A DNA stretch of 64,000 bases from an uncultured Muribaculaceae bacterium (GTDB lineage Bacteria; Bacillota_I; Bacilli_A; RF39; UBA660). Numbering within the stretch: position 1 is the stretch's first letter; each line of letters begins with the position of its first letter. The notes below the pieces were generated by a model. That model worked only from the letters and a program-made list of their open reading frames with translations, was not told the DNA's origin and made no database searches. The translations under genes were made by a program, and so were the position numbers. Of the stretch, positions 4,321-55,558 are shown one piece after another. The stretch covers positions 10,421-74,420 of the forward strand of contig CAZJHG010000002.1 of NCBI GenBank assembly GCA_964545885.1. Reading direction: 5' to 3'.

Positions 4321-4662
4321 CTAATTCATTTGCTCTCTTTGACGACGCTTTTCTTCACGTTCCTCTTCTTCCTCACTTGTAAGAGCTTGCTCGATTTGTC
4401 TACTTAAAGAATTAATTTTATAATTAATTTCAGGTATAATTATGTTTTTTAATTTGTCATTTATATTGCCAATATCTACTCTTATATCACTTATTTTTCC
4501 ATTATCTGCGGATTCACCATCAATTGTAAATGAATCTTTTAGTTTGTCTGCATTTGTAAGGCTACTATAAGTTTTAAGAGTTTGTCTGAGGATATTATTG
4601 ACATCATCTCTTAATGCGTAATATTTACTACGCTTTCTAATTAATTCTTTTGAGCTAGCCAT
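4321..4662 (-). CDS. Coiled-coil protein, 113 aa, with an acidic/basic tail; DUF5082/Lap-like partner candidate.
   Basis: ORF within the operon. Heptad-like pattern and a C-terminal EEEEEREEKRRQREQ tail. Confidence 0.4.
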   Translation of the reverse strand: MASSKELIRKRSKYYALRDDVNNILRQTLKTYSSLTNADKLKDSFTIDGESADNGKISDIRVDIGNINDKLKNIIIPEINYKINSLSRQIEQALTSEEEEEREEKRRQREQMN

Positions 4663-10914: not shown

Positions 10915-11029
10915 ATTTTTTTATAATCAATTTATTTAATATTATTTTATTAATTGATTCCCTTCTATTTTATATTTCCAATATAATATTATCATTTTAT
11001 CTCTTGTTTCACAATTAAAAACATACTAT

Positions 11030-38584: not shown

Positions 38585-38628
38585 AAGCACAAAAAAACAT
38601 TTTTAGTTTATAAAAATGTTTAAAATCA
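38585..38628 (-). terminator. Terminator downstream of the sortase gene.
   Basis: AAACATTTTT-7 nt-AAAAATGTTT hairpin followed by a T-rich tract on the minus strand. Confidence 0.45.
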
Positions 38629-38630
38629 GA

Positions 38631-39431
38631 TTATTCAAGTTCGATAGCACTAATAACATAATAAGTTTTTTCGCCACTATAGGAACAAGTTTGGATAGTG
38701 AGTAAATTGGAGTTTTCGTTATATTCAACATCTCTTGTATAAATTGAATTGTTTAATAAAATTTGAATATGTTCTTTATGATAGTCTTTTGATGTTTCAA
38801 CAACCATGTGTTCATTATCGGTTGTTACTTCTTTTATAGAGAATATTTTATAAATTCGACGTCCACCATCGTGTTGTAATAATATGTATGGATTTTGATT
38901 AAAGAAATCTTTATCTAAAAATTTTTCTAACTTTCTAAATGGTATATCATAAGTAGTGGAATTGTGACCATATACATTTACTTGCTTAGCAGTTGGATCA
39001 GTTCTGAAATCTAAAAATTCTGTACCTTTGACATCCTTTTTTTTATCAATTGAATGATTTAAATAATACTTATTATCAGAAGTTTTAGTTAGTAAAATGT
39101 TGAACAATCCTGGTATTTCTAAACGACCGATAACTTCGTTATTATTATATTTTTTACGATATGATGATAAATCGACATCTTCAGAAAATAAAGATTCAAC
39201 TTGTGACTTTTCACTAACTTTTTCTTCTTCTTTTGATTCTTCTTTAGTGGGAGGTTCATCATCTACTGTTTTAACATCTTTTAACTTAATATCATTTTGA
39301 TTAAGAGTATTTTTTATTTCTTGATTATTTTGGACTAACATTATAGTAGAAGATGCAAATAAAACTACTAGTATGCTAATTATTATATAGAAAATAATAC
39401 TTTTTATAGAAATTTTTTTATTTTTTTCCAT
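38631..39431 (-). CDS. srtB: Class B-type sortase. The start is moved to Met30, which has a GGAGG RBS.
   Basis: TM anchor, catalytic His (NVYGHN), Cys (LTIQTCS) and a downstream Arg. Adjacent to the adhesin gene. Confidence 0.7.
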   Translation of the reverse strand: MEKNKKISIKSIIFYIIISILVVLFASSTIMLVQNNQEIKNTLNQNDIKLKDVKTVDDEPPTKEESKEEEKVSEKSQVESLFSEDVDLSSYRKKYNNNEVIGRLEIPGLFNILLTKTSDNKYYLNHSIDKKKDVKGTEFLDFRTDPTAKQVNVYGHNSTTYDIPFRKLEKFLDKDFFNQNPYILLQHDGGRRIYKIFSIKEVTTDNEHMVVETSKDYHKEHIQILLNNSIYTRDVEYNENSNLLTIQTCSYSGEKTYYVISAIELE

Positions 39432-39618
39432 AGTATACCTCCATCTAAATGAGTTCGAACTTGTTATGATTATTTTTTTTATAATACCTTTTTTTTTACT
39501 ATTATTCAAGTGAATCACATTAATATTTTATTCTTTTACTTTATTATGTATATGATTTTTTTCGTAGTTAACGCAAAGGTATTATAACATATTTTTATAA
39601 ATAATTTTATATTTCCAA

Positions 39619-39709
39619 TTATTGAAATTTACTAATATTAAGGATTATTGCTATGGATACCATTGATATTAATAAAGATGAACCACCATAAGATAGAAAT
39701 GGTAAGGTT
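39619..39709 (-). pseudogene. Displaced 3' coding fragment of the SEDS (spoVE/ftsW-like) gene, encoding ...LPFLSYGGSSLLISMVSIAIILNISKFQ*.
   Basis: Minus-strand translation gives the hallmark SEDS C-terminal motif T-G-I-T-L-P-F-L-S-Y-G-G-S-S. The fragment is in frame with the 9-bp repeat that also ends the 5' portion at 46181..46189. Confidence 0.7.
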
Positions 39710-39718
39710 ATACCAGTT
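39710..39718. repeat. Left copy of the 9-bp direct repeat ATACCAGTT (recombination core) flanking the inserted element.
   Basis: Identical 9-mer at 46181..46189. Both lie in the same reading frame of the SEDS gene (codons T-G-I). Confidence 0.65.
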
Positions 39719-39783
39719 ACAAGTTTTACGGGAGAAAATATTTTGTGTTGCTTTTTTACGGGAGATGAAACAAGATAAAAAAA

Positions 39784-41364
39784 TTACTTTAAATATCTAG
39801 AAAGTTCTTGAAATCTAAAGAATACATTTACATTTTTATCATTATCTATTTCTACTCTATCGATTAATTCAACTACTATTGCACGAGTAGGATACTTTGA
39901 TGATAAAAACTTGTTTACTAATTCTGTACAAGTATCATAGTCTAATTTTTTTATTTTTGATAACATTTTAATCTTATCTTTTTCTAGTTTTTTCTTTTGT
40001 GTAGTTGCATTGTTTAAATCTTTATTATATCTATCAATTAAGTTAGAAAATATATTTTCAGGAATTTTACCTTGTACTTTATCCATATATAATTGTTCAA
40101 TAGCGTTGTTATATTTGGCTATTTCTTTTATTAAGATATCTATTTGTTTCTGCAATTCCGTTGATTCTTCATGTAAAATTGCATTTACTTCTTTGGTTAA
40201 TGATTTACCATCATATTCTTTAATAAATAGTTTGCAAATATTTCTAATAACTGATATCAAATCATCCTCTAGTAGATTATAGTTTAATCTATGGATATTA
40301 CATATTCCATACTTACCTTTTTTGCTATACTGATTGCATTGTGTATAATGAGATTTATCTCTTTTATTCTTTCTTTCTAAAATGCTAATCGTATGTCCAC
40401 ATTCTTTACACTTTAATAATCCACTAAATAAATATCTATCTTTATTCTTTTCTATCGTCTTTGAATTTGCTTTTAACATTTTATTTACTTTATCGAAAAT
40501 TTCTTTATCAATTATTGGTTCGTGAGTATTCTCAACTATAATATAATTTTCTTTTCTTACTGCTCTAACTTTATTGGAATTATATCTAACCTTATTGAAA
40601 GTATTTTGAACCATATTACCTAAATACATTTCGCTAGTTAAGATGCTTCTTATTGTTTGAGGCCTCCAAATGCCATAACCATCATTTTCAGTAATTGCTG
40701 CTCCTCTAGTTTCCTTCTTGTAAATTATTGGTATTGGAATTTTTTCAAGAGTTAATATATTAGCTATCTTATAACAACTATTACCTGCATATGCCATTTT
40801 AAAAATTCTTTTTACAACTTGTGATGCATTTGGGTCTATAACTAATTTGTGATGATCGGTTGGATCTTTCAAATATCCATACTTTGGAATTGATCCAATA
40901 TATTCTCCTTTTTTTTGCCTGGCAGTAAATGCTGATTTAACCTTTCTAGATGTATCTCTTAAGATATAGTCATTATAAGTTAATTTCATCGAAATCATAC
41001 TATCCCCCTCGAGTGAATCATAACCATCGTTTATTGCAATGTATCTTACACCTTTTTCACAAAAATAATCTTCGATAAATGAACCTGTTTGGTATAATTC
41101 ACGACCTAATCTTGAAAGGTCTTTCGTTAGTATACAATCTATTTTCCCTGATTCTATATCTTCAATCATTCTTTTAAATCCCGGTCTTTCAAAATTACCA
41201 CCAGAGTATCCGTCATCAACATATTCCTCTATAAGTTCTAGATTATGGTATTTACAAAATGATTCAATAATCATTCTTTGACTCTCAATTGAAGTACTCT
41301 CGTCTTTTTTTAATAAGTCCTCTTTTGACAACCTTAAATAATTACCGCATTTATATCTCTTCAT
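39784..41364 (-). CDS. Large serine recombinase: resolvase catalytic domain, recombinase domain, zinc ribbon and coiled-coil.
   Basis: N-terminal YLRLSKED (catalytic Ser) and DGYSGGNFERPGF...LSRLGRE. Cys pairs CKECGH...C. 526 aa. Confidence 0.85.
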   Translation of the reverse strand: MKRYKCGNYLRLSKEDLLKKDESTSIESQRMIIESFCKYHNLELIEEYVDDGYSGGNFERPGFKRMIEDIESGKIDCILTKDLSRLGRELYQTGSFIEDYFCEKGVRYIAINDGYDSLEGDSMISMKLTYNDYILRDTSRKVKSAFTARQKKGEYIGSIPKYGYLKDPTDHHKLVIDPNASQVVKRIFKMAYAGNSCYKIANILTLEKIPIPIIYKKETRGAAITENDGYGIWRPQTIRSILTSEMYLGNMVQNTFNKVRYNSNKVRAVRKENYIIVENTHEPIIDKEIFDKVNKMLKANSKTIEKNKDRYLFSGLLKCKECGHTISILERKNKRDKSHYTQCNQYSKKGKYGICNIHRLNYNLLEDDLISVIRNICKLFIKEYDGKSLTKEVNAILHEESTELQKQIDILIKEIAKYNNAIEQLYMDKVQGKIPENIFSNLIDRYNKDLNNATTQKKKLEKDKIKMLSKIKKLDYDTCTELVNKFLSSKYPTRAIVVELIDRVEIDNDKNVNVFFRFQELSRYLK

Positions 41365-41902
41365 AACTTATTTTTCTCCTATATAATATGTTAATTAGAG
41401 ACACTTAAATATTGCATTAATTATAATATATTTTAGTGTCTCTTTTATTGTTACTAATTAGCCTATTTTTGACTTTCCTCATCTTTTTTTATTTCCCTTA
41501 TATATATTAAAAAATGCTCTTTTATAATTCGGTATAAATCTTTACCATTTGAATTATAAGTTAATTTAATATTATAATTTAAATTATTGCTTTTCATCTC
41601 GGTATCACTCTCCTCTAAAGTTTATTAAAAATTACGTAAATTTATGCAGCAAAAAAATCAATACATTTTGTATTGACTTTTCTTATTTTATTACTATTTT
41701 TAAAATTCTTTATTGATTTTGTTTTATCATAAACATTTTTGTTAAAATCAAAAGTAAACGTTGGTATTCTTTCTTTAAAGTCTGTTTAGGTATTATACTT
41801 TATAATTACCTCTGCGAATATTTTATTCAAATTTTATATCTCCTTTTGCAAATAATAAAGATTGCCCTTAAAATGGCAATCTTTTTTGCTTTATTTATTA
41901 TT

Positions 41903-42700
41903 TTACCAAGATAAACCGCTCCATGTTGCTTGTGCAGTCGACATCGAATCATAAGATTCTATTATAGATACAGAAACACTTGAATCAAAATTAATTCCAC
42001 CTGTACCAATACTTACTGCATTACTAACGGAACTACTAACTGTTTTTTGAGCATGCTTATAATCACCGTATGCATTTAATGTTAGGATAGTTGCCGATGT
42101 TAACTTTTGAATATCAAAATACATATGTGAACTGAGTGCTGTTACTGTTGTTGTTGATGTGTTTGCTGGAAGTTTAAAAGTTACTGCATATCCCGTACCA
42201 CTTAATTCCCAGGCTCCTGAAGTACTATTTTCATAATAACATACCGAATTGGCTGAATCGTTAATGTCGGCAATTCTTTTAAAAAATTTACTTGATGAAA
42301 CCCCAGAAATAGTACTATCTATTCCGATTCCTTGAATATCATAACTTCTTGTACTAGGCATTTTTTTCCATACTAGGTCGTTTTTATATCTATAATAACT
42401 ACCATTTTTAACGATTGTTGTTGTCATTTTCTTATAATTTGTTTCTGTATAGCCATTTGTATTTCCTAATGGAATTATTAATGCTTCGTCATTTGAATTA
42501 TTGTATTCTTCTTCTGTAATTTCTACAGTAATTGATATTGGATTTGTTTTATTATTTATAGATTTTGTCGAAGCATTACTATGTGTTGTTATTGTTTTAT
42601 AGTATTTTGTAGTTTGAGCAACTATTTCTCCATTTAAATTTTTGTTGTTATCGAACTCCTCTTGTTCCATAGTAATGATTTCTCTCTCAGAAAAGCCCAT
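41903..42700 (-). CDS. Secreted-protein paralog A, mature-domain ORF. The signal-peptide segment lies upstream in the same frame, beyond an in-frame TAA.
   Basis: About 40% identity to the 248-aa paralog (YYKTI...NGYTETNYKKMTT...TRSYDI.GIG...ATW.G.SW). Lacks its own signal peptide. Confidence 0.5.
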   Translation of the reverse strand: MGFSEREIITMEQEEFDNNKNLNGEIVAQTTKYYKTITTHSNASTKSINNKTNPISITVEITEEEYNNSNDEALIIPLGNTNGYTETNYKKMTTTIVKNGSYYRYKNDLVWKKMPSTRSYDIQGIGIDSTISGVSSSKFFKRIADINDSANSVCYYENSTSGAWELSGTGYAVTFKLPANTSTTTVTALSSHMYFDIQKLTSATILTLNAYGDYKHAQKTVSSSVSNAVSIGTGGINFDSSVSVSIIESYDSMSTAQATWSGLSW

Positions 42701-42721
42701 ATTTTGTAAATTTTCTAATTA

Positions 42722-42853
42722 CTGTTCTGAAATTTTTATATTATTAGCATTAGTATAATACCCGTTTTCGTCTAGTTCAAATGCGCTTACATTTTTGATC
42801 GAAAATAATAAAGTGAATATTGAGAATATTGGGAATAAAATATTTTTTTTCAT
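42722..42853 (-). other. 44-codon ORF encoding a signal peptide (MKKNILFPIFSIFTLLFSIKNVSA|FELDENGYY...). It is in frame with the downstream 265-aa ORF and separated from it by a single TAA at 42719..42721.
   Basis: Direct translation. Classic n/h/c signal-peptide regions with a VSA cleavage site. Confidence 0.45.
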
Positions 42854-43052
42854 ATAATATGATTTTCCTTTCTTTTTTTAATTGATAATTATTTGCTTTT
42901 TAATTTACCACCATCCAATCTTTATTTCTCAAAATATTTCAACTACTGTTTTGTATTTTAACTATAATTTGTGTATAAATCTTTTTTATATTGTTCACTA
43001 TGAGATTTTTTTATCCTAAAAGATATTTTTAAAATTATTGAATAATTTACAA

Positions 43053-43799
43053 TTACCAACTGCCTGTCCATGTAGCATTAGCAGTGTTGATAGAATCATA
43101 ATAATTAGCTATTGTGGATTTAAGTATTATTCCCCCTGATTCCACGGTGTATTTTTGAGCGTTAGAATAACTAATTGTTTCAGTTGCATGAGCATAATCT
43201 CCATATGCATATTGTTTGATGATTGTACTAGAATTATTTGCTTTTTCCATATCAACATATAAGATTTGATTTAATGAAGATAAAGAACCAGATGGTAAAG
43301 AGAAAGAAGCGCCCACTCCATAAGTTCCTATATATGGGGTGTATACTGTTTCTGTATCGCAATCGCCATTAGAATAACAATAATTTTGTACAAATGATAC
43401 ACTTGATTCTGGTTTAACACTTGACGGAAAACCTATCCCTATAATATCGTAACTTCTTGTATTAGGAATTGTCTTCCACTCAAGTATAACTTTATATCTA
43501 TATGTTGTTCCATTTTTTGCTATAGAGGTGGTCATTTTCTTATAGTTTGTTTCTGTATAACCATTTGTTGCGCTAAGTGGTAATATTAAACAATTATCTT
43601 TATAACTTTCGTATTCTTCTTTTGATATTTCTACGCTATAAGATTTTGTATTTTCGTTCATTGAATATGCAAAATTTTCACTATTTGCAAAATTTATTGT
43701 TTTATAATATTTTGTAACAGACACTAACTCTTTGTCTTCGGCTGATACTACTATTGGTATTGCCATTAATATTAATAAAATTAAAACTCCTTTTTTCAT
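43053..43799 (-). CDS. Secreted-protein paralog B, 248 aa, with an intact signal peptide.
   Basis: MKKGVLILLILMAIPIVVSA signal peptide. Paralogous to 41903..42700. Ends in W-x-G-S-W. Confidence 0.55.
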   Translation of the reverse strand: MKKGVLILLILMAIPIVVSAEDKELVSVTKYYKTINFANSENFAYSMNENTKSYSVEISKEEYESYKDNCLILPLSATNGYTETNYKKMTTSIAKNGTTYRYKVILEWKTIPNTRSYDIIGIGFPSSVKPESSVSFVQNYCYSNGDCDTETVYTPYIGTYGVGASFSLPSGSLSSLNQILYVDMEKANNSSTIIKQYAYGDYAHATETISYSNAQKYTVESGGIILKSTIANYYDSINTANATWTGSW

Positions 43800-43925
43800 A
43801 TAGTATCATTCCTTTCAATGTTAGTTCCTTTATTGATTAAATAATATCACTTACAAAAAAATACATAACACCTTATTAGGCGGATTATGTATCTTAAAAA
43901 GAGAATCTTCGTTAAAATTGTGTAT

Positions 43926-44714
43926 TTATTTATATAAGACATTATTGTATTCTTTATCAATTATTGACAGCTTGTATTCTTTTTTTTCTTTTATATTATC
44001 ACTTGTACTATATTCGAGAAAGAGAATTAGATTGTTATCACTTATTTTATTTTTCTTCGTTTCTTTTTTGCTTTCATTAAAAAGTATCGAAAAGTTTTCT
44101 AATAATTCACTAATATAATACATTTTAATATTTCCCTCATCATCGTATTGTTCATTAAAAGTATAATTTAATATTACTTCATTATCATTCAGTATAGATA
44201 TTTTTAATTTACTTATTCTTAGTTCATCAGGAGTGCCCTTATCATTTGATTGATATATCAGATTTTTTAAAAACACTAATTCCTTATTTTTTTGATTTAT
44301 TATATAACCTTCTGAATAAAATGACTCATTATCTAAAACAAATTTTATATATCCATATTTGTTATAATTATTATATACAAACGATAATAAGCAAATATTT
44401 AAGAAGATTAGTATTAATATAATTACTATTAAAAAAATATTTTTTCTTATAAAAACATTAGTGTTTTTGATTTTGGGATTTTTAGGAGATGTAGATTCTT
44501 GCTTACCAGATAACAATTCTTTAGTGGTAATTCCTAATTCATCAGCTAATTTATTAACAATTGAAATATCAGGAGTTGTTATACCACATTCCCACTTTGA
44601 TACTGCTTTGCTATTAACTCCCATTTTTTGACCAAGTTGCTCTTGAGTAAGTTTTTTTTCTTTTCTTAATTTTGCAATTAATTTACCTATTTTTGCTTGA
44701 TCCATACACATCAC
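43926..44714 (-). CDS. Membrane-anchored XRE-family (Cro/CI HTH) transcriptional regulator with an extracytoplasmic C-terminal domain.
   Basis: HTH LTQEQLGQKMGVNSKAVSKWECG, a single TM (FLIVIILILIFLNICLLSFV), and a ~150-aa C-terminal domain. Confidence 0.65.
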   Translation of the reverse strand: MMCMDQAKIGKLIAKLRKEKKLTQEQLGQKMGVNSKAVSKWECGITTPDISIVNKLADELGITTKELLSGKQESTSPKNPKIKNTNVFIRKNIFLIVIILILIFLNICLLSFVYNNYNKYGYIKFVLDNESFYSEGYIINQKNKELVFLKNLIYQSNDKGTPDELRISKLKISILNDNEVILNYTFNEQYDDEGNIKMYYISELLENFSILFNESKKETKKNKISDNNLILFLEYSTSDNIKEKKEYKLSIIDKEYNNVLYK

Positions 44715-46095: not shown

Positions 46096-47172
46096 CTATT
46101 TTTTATTTTTTATAAAATCTTCTAAATTCTTTATTTTAAAGGGAAAAAGGCATTTTTTTATTTTCTCCCCTACAAATGTAATACCAGTTGTAGGAATAGT
46201 ACCAGTAACAACTAATATATTTAGTGCTACTTGAAGAATCAAACCGAATGATAACCCAAATGATAAATATTTTTTAAATAAATCTTTTTGTGATAAAGAT
46301 ATTCTTATAGAACGATAAAAAATTATACTAAATAATCCTAATACTAAAATTACACCAAGTATGCCAAATTCCTCAGCTATTATACTAAATATAAAATCAG
46401 TTTGAGGTTCTGGAAGATAAAAATTTTTTTGAATAGAATTACCAAAACCAACTCCTAATAAACCTGAAGGAACAATAGCATATAGACTTTGAATTATTTG
46501 GAAACCACTACCTAATGGATCACTCCATGGATTTAAATATGCAGTTATTCTTTGAAGACGATATGGAGCTATGACTATTAAAATAACTATCCCTATTAAA
46601 CCTAATATTCCAACTTTTATAAAAAACGATAAGTCTGGACCTGATACGTAGATTAATACTACTAAAGTTAGGACAATTACCATAGCAGTTCCAAAGTCAG
46701 GCTCTAACATTATTAAAAAGAAAAAAATACAAATAACTAAAAATAATGGTAAAAGACCTTTCTTTATATCTTTAATACTTTTATTATTATGAGATAAATA
46801 TTTAGATGTATAAATAATTAGACCTAATTTAGAAAACTCTGACGGCTGGATACCTAAGGACCCTAAACCAAACCAACTACGAGAACCATTTCTTACTTTA
46901 CCTATTCCTGGTATCAAGACTAATATTAATAATGAAAGACATACTAAAAGTATATTATTTGAATTTTTTTCTAATATAGATAAATCTAATTTAGTTATAA
47001 TTAACATTACTATTAAACCAAGTAAAAAAAATATTAATTGAGATTTTAAATACTTAAATTCATCATTATATTTATATGCAGCCCATATGCTACTGGAGGA
47101 ATAAACCATTAAAATACCAAAACATATTAATATAATAGTTGACACTAAAAGAATTTTATCTATTTTCTTCAT
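46096..47172 (-). CDS. spoVE: SEDS-family peptidoglycan glycosyltransferase (SpoVE/FtsW/RodA-like). Its conserved C-terminus is replaced by 27 element-encoded residues.
   Basis: Motifs PSEFSK, PDFGTAMV, YLPEPQTDFIFS and LNILVVTGTIPTTGITF. It lacks the LPFxSYGGSS motif, which is found instead at 39619..39709. Confidence 0.7.
   Translation of the reverse strand: MKKIDKILLVSTIILICFGILMVYSSSSIWAAYKYNDEFKYLKSQLIFFLLGLIVMLIITKLDLSILEKNSNNILLVCLSLLILVLIPGIGKVRNGSRSWFGLGSLGIQPSEFSKLGLIIYTSKYLSHNNKSIKDIKKGLLPLFLVICIFFFLIMLEPDFGTAMVIVLTLVVLIYVSGPDLSFFIKVGILGLIGIVILIVIAPYRLQRITAYLNPWSDPLGSGFQIIQSLYAIVPSGLLGVGFGNSIQKNFYLPEPQTDFIFSIIAEEFGILGVILVLGLFSIIFYRSIRISLSQKDLFKKYLSFGLSFGLILQVALNILVVTGTIPTTGITFVGEKIKKCLFPFKIKNLEDFIKNKK
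46181..46189. repeat. Right copy of the 9-bp direct repeat ATACCAGTT.
   Basis: See the left copy. Adjacent inverted-repeat arm TCTCCCCTACAAA. Confidence 0.65.
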
Positions 47173-47230
47173 GTAATCACCTATTTAAATATATTTTACT
47201 TTATTAAAAAAATAATATGAGCTAGTCATA

Positions 47231-48436
47231 TTATTTGAATTTTCTTTTCTTTTTAGTAAATAAATTTAAACATAAGAGAAGTACTATAATAAATGTTATA
47301 ACAATAATTATAGATATTGGAGATTCTGTATCTTCTGGTTCGATAGAAAATATTTTATCTTTTAAATGAACGTTATATGTTGAGATGATTTTATCATTTA
47401 CAATTATATCTATGTAACCAAGATTATCTCCAACTTGATTAGATGGTGTTATCTTATCTGCAATATGATATTCTAATGATACATTGTCTAGTTCTTCTTC
47501 TGGTAATGTTACTATTATGTCTTTTTCGGCTGTTACATCATATTCATCTATTGTACCATTTTCAACTTGAATTTTTTTTAATAATTCATCTTTTTTAATT
47601 AATGTTTTACTACTAAATGTAATGGTAGATAAATAATTATAAATACTATGAGTTTCCAAAATATGAGTTGAAGCATAAGCATTTACATCACAATTCATAA
47701 CAATTAACATATAGTTTGTATCGTTTATATTAGATGTAGATGCCAATAGTAAACCAGCTTCTGGTGTATATCCTGATTTATTACCTGTTAAAAGATTTTC
47801 ATCTAAGCCGTGAAATGTCTCATAACTTCTTGTATAATTATATACAATTAAACCATTCGATAAAGTCTTTTGATTAGTAGAAAATACTTTTTTAAAAGTA
47901 TCATTCTTTAATGCTTCTTTTAGTAGGCGGGATATTTCGCGAGCAGTAGATATATTATTGTCATCTCCACCATATGAATCTGCAAAAGTGGAATTACGTA
48001 AACCTAATTTTTGAGCTTCAAAATTCATTAAGATATTAAATTCTTCGGTTGAACCAGCTGTATGAAGTGCTAAAGCCTGAGAAGCATCAGCACCAGAAGG
48101 TAACATCATAGCATATAAAAGATCTAAATAGCTTAACTTGTCTCCTACTTCTAGACCAGCACAAGTAAAACCATATAAATTATATAAATCATCTTCAGTA
48201 ATAGTAACTTTTTCACTTAAATCATCGACATTATTAATAACAGTATAAGCTGTCATTATCTTAGTTAAAGAAGCCAATATCTGTTTCTTGTCAGGATTCT
48301 TTTCATATACTACTTGGTCAGTATCTAAATTAACAAGAATTACTGAATCAGCAGTTACTTCGATGGGAAGTTCTAAACATTTAGTAGTTGGAATGATTAA
48401 GAAAAAACAACAAATAAAAAACAAGACTTTTTTCAT
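47231..48436 (-). CDS. dacB: Serine-type D-Ala-D-Ala carboxypeptidase (DacB/DacF-like low-MW PBP). The start is moved to Met7, which has a GGAAGTG RBS.
   Basis: Signal peptide. SxxK (ASLTKIM) and KSG motifs. C-terminal TM anchor. Confidence 0.75.
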   Translation of the reverse strand: MKKVLFFICCFFLIIPTTKCLELPIEVTADSVILVNLDTDQVVYEKNPDKKQILASLTKIMTAYTVINNVDDLSEKVTITEDDLYNLYGFTCAGLEVGDKLSYLDLLYAMMLPSGADASQALALHTAGSTEEFNILMNFEAQKLGLRNSTFADSYGGDDNNISTAREISRLLKEALKNDTFKKVFSTNQKTLSNGLIVYNYTRSYETFHGLDENLLTGNKSGYTPEAGLLLASTSNINDTNYMLIVMNCDVNAYASTHILETHSIYNYLSTITFSSKTLIKKDELLKKIQVENGTIDEYDVTAEKDIIVTLPEEELDNVSLEYHIADKITPSNQVGDNLGYIDIIVNDKIISTYNVHLKDKIFSIEPEDTESPISIIIVITFIIVLLLCLNLFTKKKRKFK

Positions 48437-48544
48437 TACATCACTTCCTATCATGCTTTTTTATTTTAACAAATTAATAGTGTTTTTTCAACCAAGGTAC
48501 TAGAATTATTTAAAAATTAAAGCATATATTATTTTGGTGATAAC

Positions 48545-50449
48545 ATGTTTATTAAAGATAAACAATTTAGAATAAAACTAGTACTGGTTATTGTTTTTAT
48601 AATATTTTTTATTATTTTTTTTAGAATTATTTATTTACAAGTTTATCGTAATGATGAACTTGGTACGTTAGCTGAGGCGTTGTGGCAAAGAAATTTACCT
48701 GTTACTGCAGATCGTGGAAGAATACTTGATCGTAACGGGAAAGTTCTAGCGACTAATATAACGACTACTACATTATATGCCGTTCCTAATCAAATTTTGA
48801 ATAAAGAAGATGCTGCACAAAAGTTAGCTAAAATATTAGAAGCTAATTATGATGATATATATGCTCATTTAACTAAAAAAACTTCTTTAGAGAAAATAAA
48901 TCCAGAAGGAAGACAACTTAATAGTGATATTGCTGATAAGATAAATGAGCTTAATATAGATGGTTTATACTTAATGAAAGAGTCTAAAAGATACTATCCT
49001 TATGGAGAAGTATTATCTCATGTACTTGGATATGTTGGAATAGATAATCAAGGACTTTCGGGATTGGAATTAAAATATGATGAATATCTTACTGGGAAGA
49101 ATGGTTCAATAAAATATGTTTCTGATGGTAAAGGTAATAGACTTACTAATAGTGAAGTATATGAACAACCACAGAATGGAATGGATATTTATTTAACTAT
49201 TGATATAGATATTCAACTGGCATTAGAAAAAGAACTAGAAAATGCTACAGCAAAATATAATCCGGAAGAAAGCTTGGCTATGGTAATGAATCCAAATACT
49301 GGGGAAATATTAGCTATGGGGTCAAACCCTACTTTCGATTCGAACAATTATAAAGAATATGACTTAGAAACTATTAATAGGAACTTGCCTATTTGGAAAA
49401 ATTATGAACCTGGGTCCACTTTCAAAATAATTACTTTGGCTGCTTCATTAGAAGAAAAAACAATTAATTTATTTGAAGATACTTATTATGATGGTGGTGC
49501 TATAAATGTTGAGGGAGCTAGGATAAAATGTTGGAAATCTGGTGGGCATGGTGCAGAGACTTTCTTGCAAGTAGTACAGAATTCATGTAACCCGGGGTTT
49601 GTTGTTATGGGGCAAAAGCTAGGTACTGAAACACTTTATAAATATGTTGAAAACTTTGGATTTACGGAAAAAACTGGTATTGATTTAAATGGTGAATCTA
49701 GTGGTATTATGTTTGATTTGGAAGATATTGGGCCTGTTGAACAAGCTACTATATCGTTTGGTCAAGGTATAAGTGTTACTCCGATACAACAAGTTACTGG
49801 AGTTAGTGCTGCTATTAATGGTGGAAATCTGTATACGCCCTATGTTGTTAAATATATAACTGAACCAGAGACAGATGATATTATTTATGAAAATAAACCA
49901 CTTTTAAAAAGAAAAGTTATTAGTGAAGAAACTTCTGAAATGGTTAGGTATGCTCTTGAAACGGTAGTTAATAGTGGGACTGGTAAAAATGCGTATATAG
50001 AAAACTATCGTGTTGGTGGTAAAACTGGAACAGCTCAAAAGGTAAATAATGGAGCTTATATGGTTGGTAATTATATCGTATCTTTTATTGGCTTTTTACC
50101 AGCTGATAAACCAGAGTATGTTGTGTATGTGGCAATTGATCATCCACAAGGAATTACACAATATGGTGGAACTGTTTCGGCACCAATTGCTAAAAGTATA
50201 ATGGAAAGTATCATTAGTATTAAAGAAATTGAGCCGAGTGCTGATATTACCCCTAGAACGTATACTTGGTTAGATACTAAATATGTTAAGTTATCATCGG
50301 TAGTTGGAAAAAGTAAAAAAGAAGCTATTTCTACTTTAAAAGGGTTTAAATTAGAATTTAGTGGTACTGGAGATACCGTAATATATCAAGAGCCAAGTGC
50401 AGATACTTATGTAAAAGAAGGTTCTACAGTTAAAGTGATGCTTAATTAA
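48545..50449 (+). CDS. spoVD: Class B penicillin-binding protein with a single C-terminal PASTA domain (SpoVD-like).
   Basis: N-terminal TM and dimerisation domain. Transpeptidase motifs STFK, SCN and KTGTA. One PASTA domain; PBP2B typically has two. Confidence 0.8.
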   Translation: MFIKDKQFRIKLVLVIVFIIFFIIFFRIIYLQVYRNDELGTLAEALWQRNLPVTADRGRILDRNGKVLATNITTTTLYAVPNQILNKEDAAQKLAKILEANYDDIYAHLTKKTSLEKINPEGRQLNSDIADKINELNIDGLYLMKESKRYYPYGEVLSHVLGYVGIDNQGLSGLELKYDEYLTGKNGSIKYVSDGKGNRLTNSEVYEQPQNGMDIYLTIDIDIQLALEKELENATAKYNPEESLAMVMNPNTGEILAMGSNPTFDSNNYKEYDLETINRNLPIWKNYEPGSTFKIITLAASLEEKTINLFEDTYYDGGAINVEGARIKCWKSGGHGAETFLQVVQNSCNPGFVVMGQKLGTETLYKYVENFGFTEKTGIDLNGESSGIMFDLEDIGPVEQATISFGQGISVTPIQQVTGVSAAINGGNLYTPYVVKYITEPETDDIIYENKPLLKRKVISEETSEMVRYALETVVNSGTGKNAYIENYRVGGKTGTAQKVNNGAYMVGNYIVSFIGFLPADKPEYVVYVAIDHPQGITQYGGTVSAPIAKSIMESIISIKEIEPSADITPRTYTWLDTKYVKLSSVVGKSKKEAISTLKGFKLEFSGTGDTVIYQEPSADTYVKEGSTVKVMLN

Positions 50450-50480
50450 GGATAAATCTATAGGATTTTAAGACAAATAA

Positions 50481-50508
50481 AAAGATAATTTGGATATTAA
50501 TTATCTTT
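50481..50508. terminator. Bidirectional terminator hairpin between spoVD-like (+) and pfp (-).
   Basis: AAAGATAATT-8 nt-AATTATCTTT with T-runs on both strands. Confidence 0.45.
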
Positions 50509-52170
50509 TTCTACTTCAGTTTCTAATGTTAAAGTTATTGTTTTACTATCACATATTTCTGAAGGACCATAATATTGAATAGCTCCTGGATAGATATATG
50601 AATTGTTTAGTGTCCAGTATTCTCTGTTTTGTTCAAATAACTTAAATGGTTTTCCGTTAAGATCAACTAGGGCTTTTTTTATAACTGGTTTATCTTTGCC
50701 GTGTCTTCTTTCAATATTCATCATCTTGGTAATTGGTATACCTCCGGCAATCCAATCTGACGCTGACTTCGAAAGACTAGAGATTTTTGATAGATATCCA
50801 TTGTATCCGTATTGAATTAAAATAAATGCATTATAACCCAATGAATAGCAGTAATCGGCATCAAAATTGGATGGGAATGCACATCTACCCTCATATCCTA
50901 AAAAATGATGAATTGGTGTGAATTTACCATTATATAGGTTGAAAGATTTTTTTAGAGCAAGTCTTTCAGCTACTATCTTAGAAAACAGCTTTTCTGATTC
51001 GATAAGAGATACTTGAACATTTCCATGAGGGTCACGTTCTAATAACAATTGTTTTTGAATGTCGTCTGGCAATATATCAAAAACTTTTAAAGATTTAGAA
51101 GTTAAACCATTAATTATGAAATCATACTTATCTTCCCATGATGGCAAATTATTAAATTCTTCAGTTTTTTCACCAGCAACAAGTTCATTTAGTTCACTTA
51201 TTAGTGTTGAAAATTCTGGTATAAATTCAATTGTTCCTTCAGGGATTATCACTACTCCGAAATTCATGTTTTTTTCTGATCTTTTGATGACAATATCGCA
51301 AATGTAATCAGCTATTTCTGATAAAGATTGTTTTTTCTCTTTGATTTCTTCTGATATGAGGCAGATATTCGGATGAGTTTGAAGAGCACATTCGAGTGCA
51401 ATATGAGAAGCAGAACGTCCCATAATTTTTATAAAATGCCAATATTTTTTAGCTGAAATTGCATCTCTTTCAATATTCCCGATAAGTTCGCTGTATGTTT
51501 TTGTCGCTGTATCAAATCCGAATGAACATTCAATATCTTCATTTTTTAAATCACCGTCTATAGTTTTAGGGCAACCAATTACTTGAATATCAATATTGTG
51601 AGAGATAAAGTATTCTGCTAATAGAGCGGCATTTGTGTTTGAGTCGTCTCCACCAATAATGACAACAGCATTGATATTATGTTTTTGACATACATCTGTA
51701 ATTATAGAAAATTGCTCCACTGTTTCAAGTTTAGTCCTATCTGAACCAAGGATATCAAAACCACCAGTGTTTCTAAATTGATTAATATAGCTATCATCAA
51801 ATATTTTGTAATCATCATTAAGAAGTCCTTTTGGTCCACCGATAAAGCCGTAAAGTTCATTTTCTGGATTAGCTGATTTTAAAGAGTCATATAGTCCGCA
51901 AATTACATTGTGTCCTCCTGGAGCTTGTCCTCCTGAAAGGATTACACCAACTGTGTATTTTTTTGGTATGGATGTATTTTTGCCTTTTTTAAATACTATT
52001 TCTTTTTTTCCGTATGTGTTTGGAAATATTTTTTGTATTTTTTCACAATCAGAAACACTTTTTGTCTCATTTCCTTCTACTACCGCTATTTTTGATATAC
52101 CATTTTTTAACATATTAGGTAGTTTGGGAATGTATTTTAATCTTTCATTTTGTAATGTTGAATTTGTCAT
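50497..52170 (-). CDS. pfp: Pyrophosphate-dependent phosphofructokinase (diphosphate--fructose-6-phosphate 1-phosphotransferase). Start at the ATG with an AAGGAGA RBS.
   Basis: GGQAPGGHNVI, IIGGDDSNTNA and PKTIDGDL motifs; ~555 aa, the long PPi-PFK type. Confidence 0.85.
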   Translation of the reverse strand: MTNSTLQNERLKYIPKLPNMLKNGISKIAVVEGNETKSVSDCEKIQKIFPNTYGKKEIVFKKGKNTSIPKKYTVGVILSGGQAPGGHNVICGLYDSLKSANPENELYGFIGGPKGLLNDDYKIFDDSYINQFRNTGGFDILGSDRTKLETVEQFSIITDVCQKHNINAVVIIGGDDSNTNAALLAEYFISHNIDIQVIGCPKTIDGDLKNEDIECSFGFDTATKTYSELIGNIERDAISAKKYWHFIKIMGRSASHIALECALQTHPNICLISEEIKEKKQSLSEIADYICDIVIKRSEKNMNFGVVIIPEGTIEFIPEFSTLISELNELVAGEKTEEFNNLPSWEDKYDFIINGLTSKSLKVFDILPDDIQKQLLLERDPHGNVQVSLIESEKLFSKIVAERLALKKSFNLYNGKFTPIHHFLGYEGRCAFPSNFDADYCYSLGYNAFILIQYGYNGYLSKISSLSKSASDWIAGGIPITKMMNIERRHGKDKPVIKKALVDLNGKPFKLFEQNREYWTLNNSYIYPGAIQYYGPSEICDSKTITLTLETEVEKDN

Positions 52171-52202
52171 ATGTATTTCTCCTTTAATCAATATAGTGCT
52201 AT

Positions 52203-52231
52203 TTAAAAAGTACCTTAGTTGGTACTTTTTT
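52203..52231 (-). terminator. Hairpin with a T-run at the 3' end of the effector gene.
   Basis: AAGTACC-6 nt-GGTACTT stem overlapping the stop codon, followed by TTTT on the minus strand. Confidence 0.35.
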
Positions 52232-54521
52232 CTTCTTTATCTTCTTTTTTAGTTATTGCTGTTGTTGCAGCTAAGGCTGATAATGCAGCTGCTGAAACGC
52301 CTAAAAGTTCTGGTGACATATAACTAATTCTATTTGAAGATGTAGTATTTGATGTAAAATCAATTCTTGCTGGTGTTACTGTTTGAGCAGTATTTGAATT
52401 TAAATTATAACCATCAACTCTTGTGTTTGGTATTTCTGGTACACTATCATTAGTGCTATTATTTATTATGTTATTATTGTTTGTTATAACGTTACTATTA
52501 TTTCCAGATCCTATGCTATTGTTATTTTGAACATTCTCTGGTGTTATATAATTTACATTATCTTTGGAAGATGAAATTGTATTATTTGTAACATCAGCAA
52601 TAGTGACGTCTTTTATTAAATCTTGGTTAGGACTTGATAAACTTGGTTCAGTATAAGTTGGTCCTGTTGAAGGCGTTTGATCGCTTGAATTGCCAGTTAA
52701 TGTATTGCCATAACTACTTGATGAAGTGCTACCAGTAGTTGTACTACTTGAATTACTTGATGAAGAGCTTCCGGTAGTTGTGCTTCCTGAGTTACTTGAT
52801 GATGAGCTTCCGGTAGTTGTGCTTCCTGAATTACTTGATGATGAACTTCCGGTAGTTGTGCTTCCTGAATTACTTGATGATGAGCTACCAGTAGTGGTGC
52901 CACTTGAGTTACTTGATGAAGAGCTTCCAGTAGTGGTGCCACTTGAGTTACTTGATGAAGAGCTTCCGGTAGTTGTGCTTCCTGAATTACTTGATGATGA
53001 GCTTCCGGTAGTTGTGCTACTTGAGTTACTTGATGATGAGCTTCCAGTAGTGGTGCCACTTGAGTTACTTGATGAAGAGCTTCCAGTAGTGGTGCCACTT
53101 GAGTTACTTGATGAAGAGCTTCCGGTAGTTGTGCTTCCTGAATTACTTGATGATGAGCTTCCGGTAGTTGTGCTACTTGAGTTACTTGATGATGAGCTTC
53201 CAGTAGTGGTGCCACTTGAGTTACTTGATGAAGAACTTCCGGTAGTTGTGCCACTTGAGTTACTTGAAGAAGAGCTACCAGTAGTGGTGCCACTTGAGTT
53301 ACTTGATGAAGAACTTCCGGTAGTTGTGCTACTTGAATTACTTGATGAAGAGTTTCCGGTAGTTGTGTTTCCTGAATTACTTGATGATGAACTTCCGGTA
53401 GTTGTGCTTCCTGAATTACTTGATGAAGAGCTTCCGGTAGTTGTGCTACTTGAATTACTTGATGATGAACTTCCGGTAGTTGTGCTTCCTGAATTACTTG
53501 ATGATGAGCTTCCAGTAGTTGTACTACTTGAGTTACCTGAGCTTGGGCTTTCTGTTTTATCACTTGTTTCGTTTGAAGTTTTATCAGTATTAGTATTGTC
53601 TTCTTTAGATGTTGTTTCTTGTCCCGCTGATAAATTATCGGCTTTTTGATCTGGCTGAACAGTTTCGTTATAAACTCCATCAATATCAATATCTCCAAGT
53701 TGTTCTAAAATACTTGAACTTACAGAAACGGTTCCAGCTGATGTTTGAGCTCCTGTGGTAGCAGCTGGATCAAAAATCCAAGTATTACCAGCTGAAAATT
53801 GTAATTCATCCCATGAATATCCATCATCATAATTTGAACTACGAAAAGAACGATAAGGGTCGTTTGCTATTATTTTTCCGTCTTCGGTTACTCCTGTACA
53901 CACTAAAAAGTGAGTGCTGTTTTTAACAAGACATATTACTAGTTTTCCTTCTTTAAGGTAATTTACTAAATCTTCTCTACTAGTACTACGATCATTTACC
54001 CAATTTAAACCAACGTAATCAGCAGCCGTTGTCATTTTTCCAACGTTGCTACTTTTATCAGCATTAGCAATTTCAGCCAAATCATCTGGAGTGTATAATT
54101 TACCTAATATATATGATGCAACCATACATAGAGATGTGATACCACATCCACTTGTAGCAACTGTTCCTTGACTATATTTAAGATGTGCATAATCATCTTG
54201 AGTTAATAATGGTACATCAGTAAAATTACCATTTTCATCAATTATACCTTGTTCGCAAAAATCAAATAGTAAAGCGGCTTTACTATCGTTAGCAATTAAG
54301 ATACTTTTTGTTTCTTCGAATTGTTCTATTAATGTTGCTATGTCACCATTTACCAATTTACTAATTGTATTCTGAGCATCTGTAAGAAGAGATTTTTTAG
54401 TTACTTCACTTGGTAGTGTTATGCTTTTTATTTTTTGAGAAAAATCATTAAAATCTTGCTCGATATTTTTTAGTTGTTTAAGGCCATAATATATAGAGCT
54501 ACAATCAATTTGAATATCCAT
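52215..54521 (-). CDS. Candidate T7SS-secreted effector, 768 aa: N-terminal ~115-aa helical domain, C39-like Cys-His peptidase domain, ~330-aa Ser/Thr/Gly tandem-repeat region, C-terminal domain with a terminal hydrophobic segment. The start is moved to Met25 (GAGGTG RBS, 4 nt after the upstream stop).
   Basis: No signal peptide. Cys motif SGCGITSLCM, His motif STHFLVCTG and ANDPY (C39_2-like order). About 25 copies of a 13-aa SSSSSNSGSTTTG repeat. Tail LLGVSAAALSALAATTAI + KKEDKEEK. Confidence 0.65.
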   Translation of the reverse strand: MDIQIDCSSIYYGLKQLKNIEQDFNDFSQKIKSITLPSEVTKKSLLTDAQNTISKLVNGDIATLIEQFEETKSILIANDSKAALLFDFCEQGIIDENGNFTDVPLLTQDDYAHLKYSQGTVATSGCGITSLCMVASYILGKLYTPDDLAEIANADKSSNVGKMTTAADYVGLNWVNDRSTSREDLVNYLKEGKLVICLVKNSTHFLVCTGVTEDGKIIANDPYRSFRSSNYDDGYSWDELQFSAGNTWIFDPAATTGAQTSAGTVSVSSSILEQLGDIDIDGVYNETVQPDQKADNLSAGQETTSKEDNTNTDKTSNETSDKTESPSSGNSSSTTTGSSSSSNSGSTTTGSSSSSNSSSTTTGSSSSSNSGSTTTGSSSSSNSGNTTTGNSSSSNSSSTTTGSSSSSNSSGTTTGSSSSSNSSGTTTGSSSSSNSSGTTTGSSSSSNSSSTTTGSSSSSNSGSTTTGSSSSSNSSGTTTGSSSSSNSSGTTTGSSSSSNSSSTTTGSSSSSNSGSTTTGSSSSSNSSGTTTGSSSSSNSSGTTTGSSSSSNSGSTTTGSSSSSNSGSTTTGSSSSSNSGSTTTGSSSSSNSSSTTTGSTSSSSYGNTLTGNSSDQTPSTGPTYTEPSLSSPNQDLIKDVTIADVTNNTISSSKDNVNYITPENVQNNNSIGSGNNSNVITNNNNIINNSTNDSVPEIPNTRVDGYNLNSNTAQTVTPARIDFTSNTTSSNRISYMSPELLGVSAAALSALAATTAITKKEDKEEKSTN
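52710..53540. repeat. Coding tandem repeat of about 21-25 copies of a 39-bp unit (consensus TTACTTGATGATGAGCTTCCGGTAGTTGTGCTTCCTGAA on the + strand) with point variants.
   Basis: Visible periodicity. Creates artefactual long ORFs in two other frames (52697..53698 -, 52726..53649 +). Confidence 0.85.
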
Positions 54522-54525
54522 TCTA

Positions 54526-54861
54526 TCACCTCTGGTTTGTTCTTCTTGCTTGGGCAGCTTTTGCTGCGTCTTCTTCCTCAGCCTTTTTTGCACTATTATA
54601 TAGTTCTCGATATTTTGCTATTAGTTGGTTACATTCAGATATAATAGAATCTAAATCATCAGAAATATCCTCCAATGAATCTCCCATTGCAGATACTTTC
54701 CCTTGATCCATAGGTTCGCCACAAATAGTTAAATTCTCCATTATCTTTTCACCTTTGGAAACAGAACTTTGGCAATCGCCTAAGTTATCTTTTAAGCCTC
54801 TTATTTTTTCTCTTGCTTTTTCTATTTCGGTTATTTTCTGTGAGTAGTAAGCTGAACTCAT
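54526..54861 (-). CDS. Small coiled-coil protein, 111 aa (Lap/DUF5082-like T7SS partner candidate), translationally coupled to the effector gene.
   Basis: AAGGTGGG RBS; the stop lies 4 nt before the effector ATG. N-terminal heptad pattern and acidic/basic tail. Confidence 0.45.
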   Translation of the reverse strand: MSSAYYSQKITEIEKAREKIRGLKDNLGDCQSSVSKGEKIMENLTICGEPMDQGKVSAMGDSLEDISDDLDSIISECNQLIAKYRELYNSAKKAEEEDAAKAAQARRTNQR

Positions 54862-54884
54862 ATATATTATCCCACCTTTAAATT

Positions 54885-54944
54885 CTTATTTCCTAAAAAG
54901 AAAATGTTTTTTTCTCCTTAGGAAATAAGAAGCATAATGCTTCT
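54885..54944 (-). promoter_or_regulatory. Intra-operon stem-loops between the tandem-WXG gene and the downstream genes; candidate attenuator or processing site.
   Basis: 12-bp stem CTTATTTCCTAA/TTAGGAAATAAG with a 21-nt loop, and the palindrome AGAAGCATaATGCTTCT overlapping the stop. Confidence 0.35.
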
Positions 54945-55558
54945 TAGAATGTATAATTTTTTAATGCTGATGTTATGCTCTCAGATACTTCAGTTAAATT
55001 ATTTTGGTATCTTCTAACGTTACTAATAAATTCTCTGTAAGCACTATCTGCATTTTCTCTACCTGTACCAGCTGTCCAGTTATCCATTATATCTGTATAT
55101 TTGGTATTTACAGAATTAATGAATGTACTTAAATCTGTATTAGCAGTATCAATTAATGTTTTTCCTCTTTCTGCTTCAGGTACTATATCAATTGTATCAG
55201 CAGTATCACTATATGCATCTAGTTCTTGCTTTTGGTCAGTAGTAATTACAGTTAAATATTCAAGTCCAGCATTATTACTATTTTGAATATCACGATATGT
55301 TACTGCAACACCTGAAGAATCTTGAGCTAATGTTGCTAAAGCATTTCTTACTTTAACCATTTCATTATGAACTTCAATTACTCTTTGAATGTTTTTACCA
55401 GCATCTATTCCTTTCCAACAATTCTTTAAATTTTCAATTGCTTCATACAAATTAAAAATAATTGAGTCGGCACTAGCATCGCCGCCTTTTACAACTGTAT
55501 TATATAATTCATATGAAGAGTCATATAATGCTTGTACATTATTTAATTTATGATCCAT
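54944..55558 (-). CDS. Tandem WXG100-like protein, 204 aa, with two helical-hairpin halves.
   Basis: First half has LKNCWKGIDAGKNIQ (W-x-G). Second half has MDNWTAGTGRENADSAYREF. No signal peptide. Heads an operon with the C39-like effector. Confidence 0.5.
   Translation of the reverse strand: MDHKLNNVQALYDSSYELYNTVVKGGDASADSIIFNLYEAIENLKNCWKGIDAGKNIQRVIEVHNEMVKVRNALATLAQDSSGVAVTYRDIQNSNNAGLEYLTVITTDQKQELDAYSDTADTIDIVPEAERGKTLIDTANTDLSTFINSVNTKYTDIMDNWTAGTGRENADSAYREFISNVRRYQNNLTEVSESITSALKNYTF

Follow-up and report, generated by a model that had tools for sequence, protein, structure and literature searches.

The 64,000-nucleotide (nt) stretch analysed here, referred to as the window, comes from contig CAZJHG010000002.1 (positions 10,421 to 74,420) and carries on its minus strand a three-gene module that encodes, in this order, a 204-residue tandem WXG100 protein, a 111-residue helical protein that we call the small partner, and a 768-residue protein with a C39-fold papain-type peptidase domain that we call the cargo. 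The host is one of a group of uncultured Bacilli from the gut, low in GC and akin to Candidatus Coprovivens, and the base composition (~23–36% GC) is that of a low-GC Bacillota genome. A preliminary description, made from the sequence alone, had read the module as a type VII secretion substrate cassette consisting of a WXG partner, a helical partner and a cargo with a helical N-terminal domain (N-domain). Computation of the gene structure, folds, conservation and linkage to loci of the ATPase EssC bears this out, through the EssC linkage itself, a paralogue of the small partner beside an EssC gene, and the modular behaviour of the N-domain.

The three open reading frames (ORFs; Table 1) lie exactly where they had first been placed, as does the 4-nt gap between the stop codon of the small-partner gene and the ATG of the cargo gene, and each gene is preceded by a Shine-Dalgarno sequence. 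Because the same gene order recurs in at least six other loci with different neighbours, it is more than a chance arrangement. Satellite loci like that of the window (L003, L004, L005, L006-8, L017/18) contain a tandem WXG gene, a gene for 104–130 residues and one for a C39-type protein. The module lies near PBP2B, DacA and FtsW in four related loci, and the cargo gene directly abuts PBP2B in L003, L004 and L017, with pfp intervening in the window. The gene downstream of the cassette varies with context (pfp, a convergent PBP2B gene, a convergent gene for a membrane protein, a flavodoxin gene). No immunity-like gene is conserved there across the six contexts compared, which indicates that an immunity partner is lacking, as had been noted for the window. 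The gap of 23 nt originally given between the cargo gene and pfp is correct if pfp starts at TTG; with an ATG start it is 44 nt and includes a hairpin. The terminator-like hairpin across the stop codon of the cargo gene is likely to be the end of the operon ahead of pfp.

Table 1 Coordinates of the module, its domains and RNA hairpins, and the type VII genes at the left edge of the window.
Feature	Position	Strand	Size or basis
Tandem WXG100 protein gene	55558..54944	-	204 aa
Double RNA hairpin right after WXG stop codon	54884..54941	-	folding and conservation
Small helical partner gene	54861..54526	-	111 aa
Cargo (C39-fold) gene	54521..52215	-	768 aa counted from ATG
N-terminal helical domain, aa 1-100	54222..54521	-	AlphaFold2 and profile search
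C39-fold papain-type cysteine peptidase domain, aa 101-254	53760..54221	-	putative catalytic residues Q108, C126, H204, D221
Low-complexity stalk, aa 255-738	52308..53759	-	repeats, then Asn-rich stretch with E-IPNTR-VD island
C-terminal membrane helix (aa 739-757) and Lys-rich tail (aa 758-768)	52218..52307	-	Kyte-Doolittle
Hairpin across stop codon of cargo gene	52205..52230	-	terminator-like; -11.3 kcal/mol, z -3.9
EssC-like FtsK/SpoIIIE ATPase, C-terminal 1107 aa	3..3323	+	frame open from base 3; gene runs off window start
Six convergent small helical/WXG-like genes	3710-5847	-	ANWQGQS and GEWVGES motifs in neighbours; weak Pfam WXG100
113-aa paralogue of small partner	4321..4662	-	within the six-gene cluster converging on EssC

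The fused WXG100 protein, the small partner and the hairpin between their genes

Two WXG-like halves had been recognised in the 204-residue protein by eye, and both Pfam and AlphaFold2 agree. WXG100 (PF06013) has two matching stretches (E = 3.7e-10; 40.4 bits, with the cut-off at 27.3), with TIGR03930 slightly under its cut-off (E = 3.1e-11; 43.3 bits against 44.85), and the structural model (predicted local distance difference test, pLDDT, 92.2; predicted template modelling score, pTM, 0.88) consists of two helix-turn-helix hairpins, with helices at residues 8–47, 51–94, 129–160 and 167–203 and a structured 34-residue linker between the hairpins. The turns hold the motifs W48-K-G50 and W161-T-A-G164, the latter being W-x-x-G and not strict W-x-G. 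Invariant residues in 67 tandem-WXG sequences include W48, G50, W161, G164, N201 and Y202, and a C-terminal N-Y-x-F is invariant in the family, which comprises 140 clusters that are 48–98% identical (nearly all of the 120 listed are 201–209 residues long). Since an hhalign comparison of the two halves with each other was not significant, though their Trp motifs align in register, the tandem nature of the protein rests on the Pfam match and the AlphaFold2 model. A Foldseek search with this model returned only generic four-helix bundles (e.g., ferritins), with a weak match to EspB at rank 16 (E = 0.11), and a sequence search of the PDB found nothing specific.

The protein is a fused variant of the WXG100 family. 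As in the EsxA/EsxB dimers and the single-chain EspB, its two hairpins should come together in a four-helix bundle, but whereas a typical WXG100 dimer such as EsxA/EsxB is built from two chains of ~100 residues, here both hairpins are covalently joined in one chain. Like esxA, the tandem-WXG gene adjoins EssC in related genomes, and a tree of core (EssC-locus) and satellite paralogues is compatible with the organism phylogeny. The protein may be the core EsxA equivalent of the lineage rather than a dedicated chaperone. Neither a tandem WXG100 protein nor a C39 payload on a type VII system was found described in the phrase-matched open-access literature.

The small partner has a conserved motif, I-C-G-E-P-x-D-x-G, with a later E-C. 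A hidden Markov model (HMM) built from six satellite orthologues gave 42.3 bits for the 87-residue product of the gene after the EssC-adjacent WXG gene in L015, 68.2 bits for a 128-residue protein in L021, 85.7 bits for a 104-residue protein in L022 and 42.0 bits for the 113-residue protein of the window's EssC locus. The best scores of shuffled controls were 8.8–13.4 bits, the highest, against which the window paralogue was set, being the best of 1000 shuffles. Genes of this family always lie immediately upstream of genes for N-domain proteins, and by these profile matches the small partner belongs to a genuine type VII-associated family. It has no detectable homology to Lap or YwqH proteins, and the profiles do not show it to be either: the Pfam YwqH-like family (PF16888) stays under threshold on the 111-residue protein (18.7 bits against 33.7), and a profile search of the PDB with the family found generic coiled coils only.

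The spacer of 82 nt between the WXG and small-partner genes contains a double RNA hairpin, made up of a short GAAGC/GCUUC stem and, behind it, one of 21 bp, with a free energy of -26.2 kcal/mol and a z-score of -5.1. The element is single-copy in the window and has no U-tract. Its sequence is nearly invariant in L003-L008, L017/18, L030, L062 and L097, and it is kept throughout the satellite loci despite an identity of only ~50% between the flanking proteins (L003 9563-9620, L005 9591-9638, L006 10630-10697, L017 10628-10675, L062 ~5816-5875, the last after an EssC-adjacent WXG gene). Of the 23 pairs in the consensus structure, three show compensatory changes. No Rfam family reached its gathering score on the element, and a metagenome scan with a 17-mer from the hairpin recovered the full element in three of 120 fetched loci, the remainder being chance matches. 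We suspect that it sets the ratio of WXG to cargo expression, acting in RNA processing or stabilisation or as a partial terminator; an attenuator and a protein-binding palindrome or operator are also candidates.

The cargo protein and its link to EssC

In an AlphaFold2 model of residues 1–270 of the cargo, based on 40 sequences (pLDDT 89.9, pTM 0.84), the N-domain is followed by a peptidase fold. The N-domain helices span residues 7–32, 43–78 and 80–90, with pLDDT above 90. The highest Kyte-Doolittle 19-mer in the first 60 residues scores 0.42, so that there is no hydrophobic stretch, and the lack of a signal peptide reported earlier is confirmed. At ~100 residues, the N-domain is also shorter than the ~200 of the LXG domain, as had been pointed out. 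The helical character and the type VII linkage stand, but no homology to LXG or WXG100 was detected. Pfam gave no match to the N-domain at E up to 10, LXG (PF04740) included, and no LXG match from Pfam or NCBIfam on the whole 768-residue protein at E up to 1. Comparisons with hhalign of the N-domain against LXG, WXG100 and the small partner gave probabilities below 1%, and an N-domain HMM did no better than shuffles on the six small proteins encoded in the EssC locus of the window. On the Pfam, hhalign and HMM nulls, the N-domain is no detectable homologue of LXG, WXG100 or the small partner.

A profile built from residues 1–105 of five sequences, searched against 1.84 billion representative proteins, found 45 protein clusters, and the domain is N-terminal in all of them, mostly starting at residues 1–3. 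In about 20 it precedes a C39 domain, a stalk, a membrane helix and a basic tail, and in some a C39 domain without an anchor. P0207 joins it to a borderline NlpC/P60 domain (22.6 bits), and P0208 and P0214 are proteins of 2135 and 2699 residues with ADP-ribosyltransferase exotoxin domains (E = 5e-19 and 5e-22). The remaining proteins, of 1236–1440 or ~350–400 residues, have no Pfam match. The gene order in L021 is rplL, YukD-like, EssC, tandem WXG, small partner, P0208 and a 167-residue gene, and in L062 the product of the gene after the EssC-adjacent WXG has an N-domain (43 bits) and weakly matches NlpC/P60. On the giant proteins of L009, L010, L015 and L019 a first N-domain HMM, from nine sequences, was not significant. 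A richer HMM gave 18.6 bits on the L015 giant, against 10.2 for the best shuffle, and nothing on the L010 or L019 giants; its score on the L021 giant was disregarded as circular.

Because the N-domain is rare, strictly N-terminal, swapped among payloads and found beside EssC, it is probably a secretion-targeting domain. It would be a modular export domain, LXG-like in its working and a new family by sequence. This distribution is the strongest support for the type VII assignment made in the preliminary description. Since neither the N-domain nor the small partner has detectable LXG or Lap/YwqH homology, the term LXG-type describes an analogy, not membership.

An EssC gene also lies within the window, ~47 kb from the module. 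The fragment matches Pfam FtsK_SpoIIIE in two stretches (E = 2.3e-48) and is 42–44% identical over ~1080 residues to the WXG-adjacent EssC of L010, L015 and L019. A contig matched in seeking the start of EssC also stops inside the gene. The fragment in the window is followed by a 92-residue ORF (3289-3567, +) with a weak YukD-like match (Pfam E = 0.1), and the small-partner paralogue lies among the small genes that converge on it. A 589-residue protein with a lipoprotein-like N-terminus is encoded at 5955-7724 (-) in the same left-edge type VII locus (3-7724).

Orthologues of the tandem WXG protein (52–59% identity) are encoded directly beside genes for EssC proteins of 1524–1531 residues with FHA and FtsK domains in related genomes, and EssC together with a YukD-like gene stands beside tandem WXG in L009-11, L015/16, L019/20, L021 and L062. 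The core loci lie between rplL and rpoB and comprise an 81-residue YukD-like gene, EssC, tandem WXG (on both sides of EssC in some), a small helical gene and a gene for a protein of 2000–4100 residues, which carries an ADP-ribosyltransferase domain in L021. These loci have the look of a minimal type VII system, made up of EssC, a YukD-like protein and tandem WXG. No match of this rplL–rpoB locus to the published subtypes T7SSb-j (PMC11217815) was made.

The payload of the window's cargo was described as C39_2-like. The papain fold and the Cys, His and Asp residues hold, while the domain's own match is to Peptidase_C39 (PF03412; residues 123–222, 26.1 bits against a cut-off of 22), and Peptidase_C39_2 (PF13529), a family treated as lysin-associated in endolysin surveys, is matched in homologues. 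In an alignment of 40 sequences, conservation of Q108, C126, H204 and D221 is 90% or higher. The profile match, the papain-like fold and this Gln/Cys/His/Asp arrangement place the domain in Peptidase C39 (clan CA). Its nearest sequence relatives, in more than 20 clusters, combine a signal peptide and C39_2 with Hydrolase_2, a SleB-like wall hydrolase domain, and no ABC transporter domain is present in the cargo or encoded by the adjacent genes. In two proteins, P0140 and P0143, the same C39 domain is preceded by a different helical region; neither has an LXG match or a type VII context, and both are encoded beside LytR_cpsA_psr. The earlier remark that such a payload had not been described for a type VII effector fits a 2012 catalogue of polymorphic toxins, which gives Tox-PLC39 for the type II and type VI secretion systems (T2SS, T6SS) and PVC, with type VII not among them (PMC3482391).

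Behind the peptidase domain stand 21 full 13-residue units of SSSSSNSGSTTTG, so that the giant S/T/G repeat is present as reported, with 21 units rather than ~25. Tandem Repeats Finder gives a period of 39 nt, 21.2 copies and 88% matches at 52715-53540. Two ORFs within this region, 52697-53698 (-) and 52726-53649 (+), of 333 and 307 residues, are not genes but frame by-products of the 39-nt repeat. The ~170-residue C-domain that had been proposed is low-complexity sequence (25% Asn, S/T/I-rich) with no sign of a fold. The hydrophobic helix and charged tail at its end are real: residues 739–757 are the strongest hydrophobic 19-mer of the protein (Kyte-Doolittle 1.71) and are followed by KKEDKEEKSTN.

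Every one of ten orthologues has a stalk, of 182–486 residues, whose composition ranges from S/T/G, poly-Ser and N/T/S through to E/D then Q/P, and a hydrophobic segment with an immediate Lys/Arg cluster is present in all ten orthologues examined and in ~19 family representatives. Gram-positive surface proteins characteristically have an S/T-rich stalk that leads into a hydrophobic segment with a basic tail, and this shared layout suggests, with moderate confidence, that the cargo is oriented N-out and C-in. The proposed export signal differs from that of such proteins in being a helical N-domain and not a Sec peptide. About 40 residues before the membrane helix lies the E-IPNTR-VD island (IPNT, residues 697–700, 52422-52433), and an IPNT-type island is found in eight of 19 anchored family members. 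The sortase-adjacent MucBP/VWA adhesin of the window ends in LPPNTM, a hydrophobic segment and KKK (33044-33283). The hydrophobic segment and Lys-rich tail of a sorting signal are present in the cargo, but the spacing from IPNTR to the helix is atypical. Together with the adhesin ending, the island hints that the peptidase may be a sortase substrate with unusual spacing.

A probable tethered wall peptidase and its alternatives

We think it probable, though by no means assured, that the module is a type VII cassette whose cargo is a surface-tethered C39-fold wall peptidase on a stalk, and not a delivered toxin. The preliminary description had already doubted an interbacterial toxin, and the lack of a conserved immunity gene together with the conserved anchor and stalk makes the tethered enzyme the likelier of the two. 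From the data above we infer complex formation, export, topology, substrate and hairpin function as follows. Bundled together, the N-domain, small partner and single-chain tandem WXG100 would form a composite helical signal, analogous to that of LXG with Lap1 and Lap2, and EssC would recognise this bundle and drive export of the cargo. The C-terminal helix would stay in the membrane of the producer with the Lys-rich tail in the cytoplasm, and the 480-residue S/T/G/N-rich stalk would span the wall and display the C39-fold domain in or beyond the peptidoglycan, whose peptide bonds it would most likely cleave. It could remodel the producer's own wall, for example to give passage to the very large substrates of the machine in an EssH-like manner, or it could attack the walls of contacting cells. 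A role at the wall is supported by the Sec signals and SleB-like partner domains of the closest relatives, the lysin association of PF13529, the NlpC/P60-like protein of L062 and the position of the module beside PBP2B, DacA and FtsW. The double hairpin would set the ratio of the abundant WXG protein to the products of the two downstream genes.

Several points weigh against this proposal: (i) The three-protein complex is suggested by gene order alone. (ii) We know of no type VII substrate that stays anchored via a C-terminal membrane helix, and of no mechanism for lateral release from EssC. (iii) EsaA, EssA and EssB were not seen among the scanned window ORFs or in the related core loci, so that the label T7SSb (for a secretion system of type VIIb) is unproven. 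(iv) PF16888 is touched by two of ten small-partner members (E up to 0.1), both under threshold. (v) The closest solved structures to the payload are leader-peptide proteases, related folds are intracellular toxins (8ssk, 9l5u), and a peptidoglycan substrate is suggested by the domain partners of relatives. (vi) Some orthologues have Lys on the upstream side of the helix too, which leaves the positive-inside argument suggestive and not decisive. (vii) The synteny with PBP2B and FtsW may be mere inheritance within one clade.

A further step, which we regard as possible but doubtful, is that type VII secretion serves here as the export route for a resident surface protein, through a minimal machine and a new targeting domain. 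The C39 enzyme would then be threaded N-terminus first, as a helical bundle with the double-WXG protein, through a machine made up of EssC, the YukD-like protein and tandem WXG encoded between rplL and rpoB. It would be retained by its helix or, alternatively, transferred by sortase to peptidoglycan at the xPNT(R/K)VD island, and would be the first stalked, cell-anchored wall enzyme among type VII substrates.

The payload could instead be an antibacterial type VII effector, a Tox-PLC39-type toxin that comes free of the stalk or is delivered by contact, and that cleaves a target essential to the recipient. Catalogued polymorphic toxins do include papain-like C39 domains, although with Tox-PLC39 listed for T2SS, T6SS and PVC only (PMC3482391), and the same N-domain is found on giant ADP-ribosyltransferase toxins, one of which has a small downstream gene that is possibly an immunity gene. 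We nevertheless consider an effector improbable: no downstream immunity gene is conserved in the six contexts, the catalytic domain is N-proximal and not C-terminal, the conserved anchor and long stalk are unlike a delivered toxin, and the nearest relatives are Sec-exported SleB fusions, not toxins. The same anchor recalls MycP, the mycosin of actinobacterial type VII systems, which has a C-terminal membrane anchor and an extracytoplasmic catalytic domain. A MycP-like accessory protease, with which the cargo shares this architecture, would process the secreted giants or the tandem WXG protein and not peptidoglycan, and the tight linkage of the cargo gene to the WXG gene would be as expected. 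However, a disordered stalk of 180–490 residues holds the enzyme far from the membrane complex, the cargo gene is mostly away from the EssC locus, P0201, P0212 and P0216 are anchorless members of the family, and the sibling payloads and relatives (NlpC/P60-like, SleB fusions) indicate the wall, all of which makes an accessory protease a slightly poorer candidate still than the effector.

The absence of a signal peptide would also suit a tail-anchored protein that is not secreted, with its N-terminal 740 residues in the cytoplasm and the WXG and small genes as neighbours with no connection to it or as partners in the cytoplasm; classical C39 domains are cytoplasmic in their action, and the charge around the helix is not one-sided in every orthologue. 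This is very unlikely in view of the repeated EssC linkage of the N-domain, small partner and WXG protein, the Sec signals of the closest C39 relatives, and the stalk, hydrophobic segment and basic tail typical of Gram-positive surface proteins.

Among the known systems closest to the proposed tethered-peptidase cassette are the LXG toxins. These have small partners, such as YwqH/YwqI for YwqJ of Bacillus subtilis. In Streptococcus intermedius, TelA has the Lap1/Lap2 pair LapA3/LapA4 (PMC10801868). Shared features are an all-helical N-terminal domain on variable payloads, one or two small helical proteins encoded just upstream (here by position only), a dependence on an EssC-type ATPase that genomic linkage suggests for the module, and a cassette that may sit far from the core locus. 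The module differs in having no above-threshold match to LXG, DUF3130/TIGR04197 or YwqH-like families, an N-domain of about half the length, a single-chain tandem WXG100 as one partner, and a payload that is N-proximal and followed by a stalk and membrane anchor, with no immunity gene. EssH, a CHAP-domain peptidoglycan hydrolase required for the T7SSb of Staphylococcus aureus (PMC13059805; PMC10765036), is likewise a papain-superfamily cysteine hydrolase genetically tied to a type VII WXG gene, and both could plausibly open the wall for the machine or its substrates. EssH is Sec-exported and released to the medium, whereas the cargo has a type VII-style N-domain and an anchor, its fold is C39-like and not CHAP, and its peptidoglycan activity is a prediction.

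The Sec-exported C39_2 + Hydrolase_2 proteins (P0005, P0006, P0129-P0150) belong to the same C39-like subfamily, with 35–45% identity over the catalytic domain and the same Q/C/H/D residues; in contrast to the cargo they combine a classical signal peptide with a second wall-lytic domain, lack the helical N-domain, stalk and anchor, and have no recorded WXG neighbours. Unlike the Peptidase C39 domains of ABC exporters (ComA, LahT, PCAT1), the domain in the window is neither fused to nor beside an ABC transporter, has no evident double-glycine substrate and is predicted to be extracellular. Tox-PLC39 and papain-like toxins of T6SS and contact-dependent inhibition (CDI) systems (9l5u, 8ssk; PMC3482391) also use a C39-like papain fold as secretion cargo, but those toxins are at the extreme C-terminus, have an immunity gene next to them and are reported from T2SS, T6SS, PVC and CDI, not type VII, whereas the window protein has its catalytic domain within the first third of its 768 residues, no immunity gene, and an anchor.

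What is understood of type VII secretion in Bacillota comes almost wholly from cultured pathogens, with their LXG toxins and small WXG proteins. Cassettes in which a substrate with a helical N-domain goes with small partners are an already known kind; new are the family of the targeting domain, the double WXG in one chain, the C39-fold cargo with its stalk and anchor, the conserved hairpin and the apparently minimal machine. If our proposal is correct, there would be a second modular N-terminal targeting domain, not detectably related to LXG and limited to uncultured, reduced-genome gut Bacilli, and a cargo apparently made for retention on the surface of its producer, possibly a self-exported wall hydrolase with a role analogous to that of EssH. 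A surface-retained cargo would force a model of how a membrane-anchored protein exits the EssC channel, and a natural single-chain double WXG could ease structural work on the presentation of WXG proteins and substrates to EssC. Through the module, a type VII system that is apparently very small becomes open to testing.

Surroundings of the module

Within the window the module lies amid wall and division genes (46096-52191), which encode FtsW/RodA, a D-Ala-D-Ala carboxypeptidase and PBP2B. A rearranged form of the module is seen in the metagenome contig of L001, where at 9759-11307 the first ~75 tandem-WXG codons are joined to the C39 part of the cargo gene, with no second WXG half, small partner or N-domain; the corresponding locus is intact in L005. 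The L001 arrangement is either a natural deletion or an assembly artefact. The adhesin with the LPPNTM ending, a 1727-residue VWA and MucBP protein with a sortase gene alongside at 38631-39518, lies in a region (33044-44714) that also contains genes for a large serine recombinase (39784-41364) and a helix-turn-helix (HTH) regulator (43926-44714) and that may be the edge of a mobile element.

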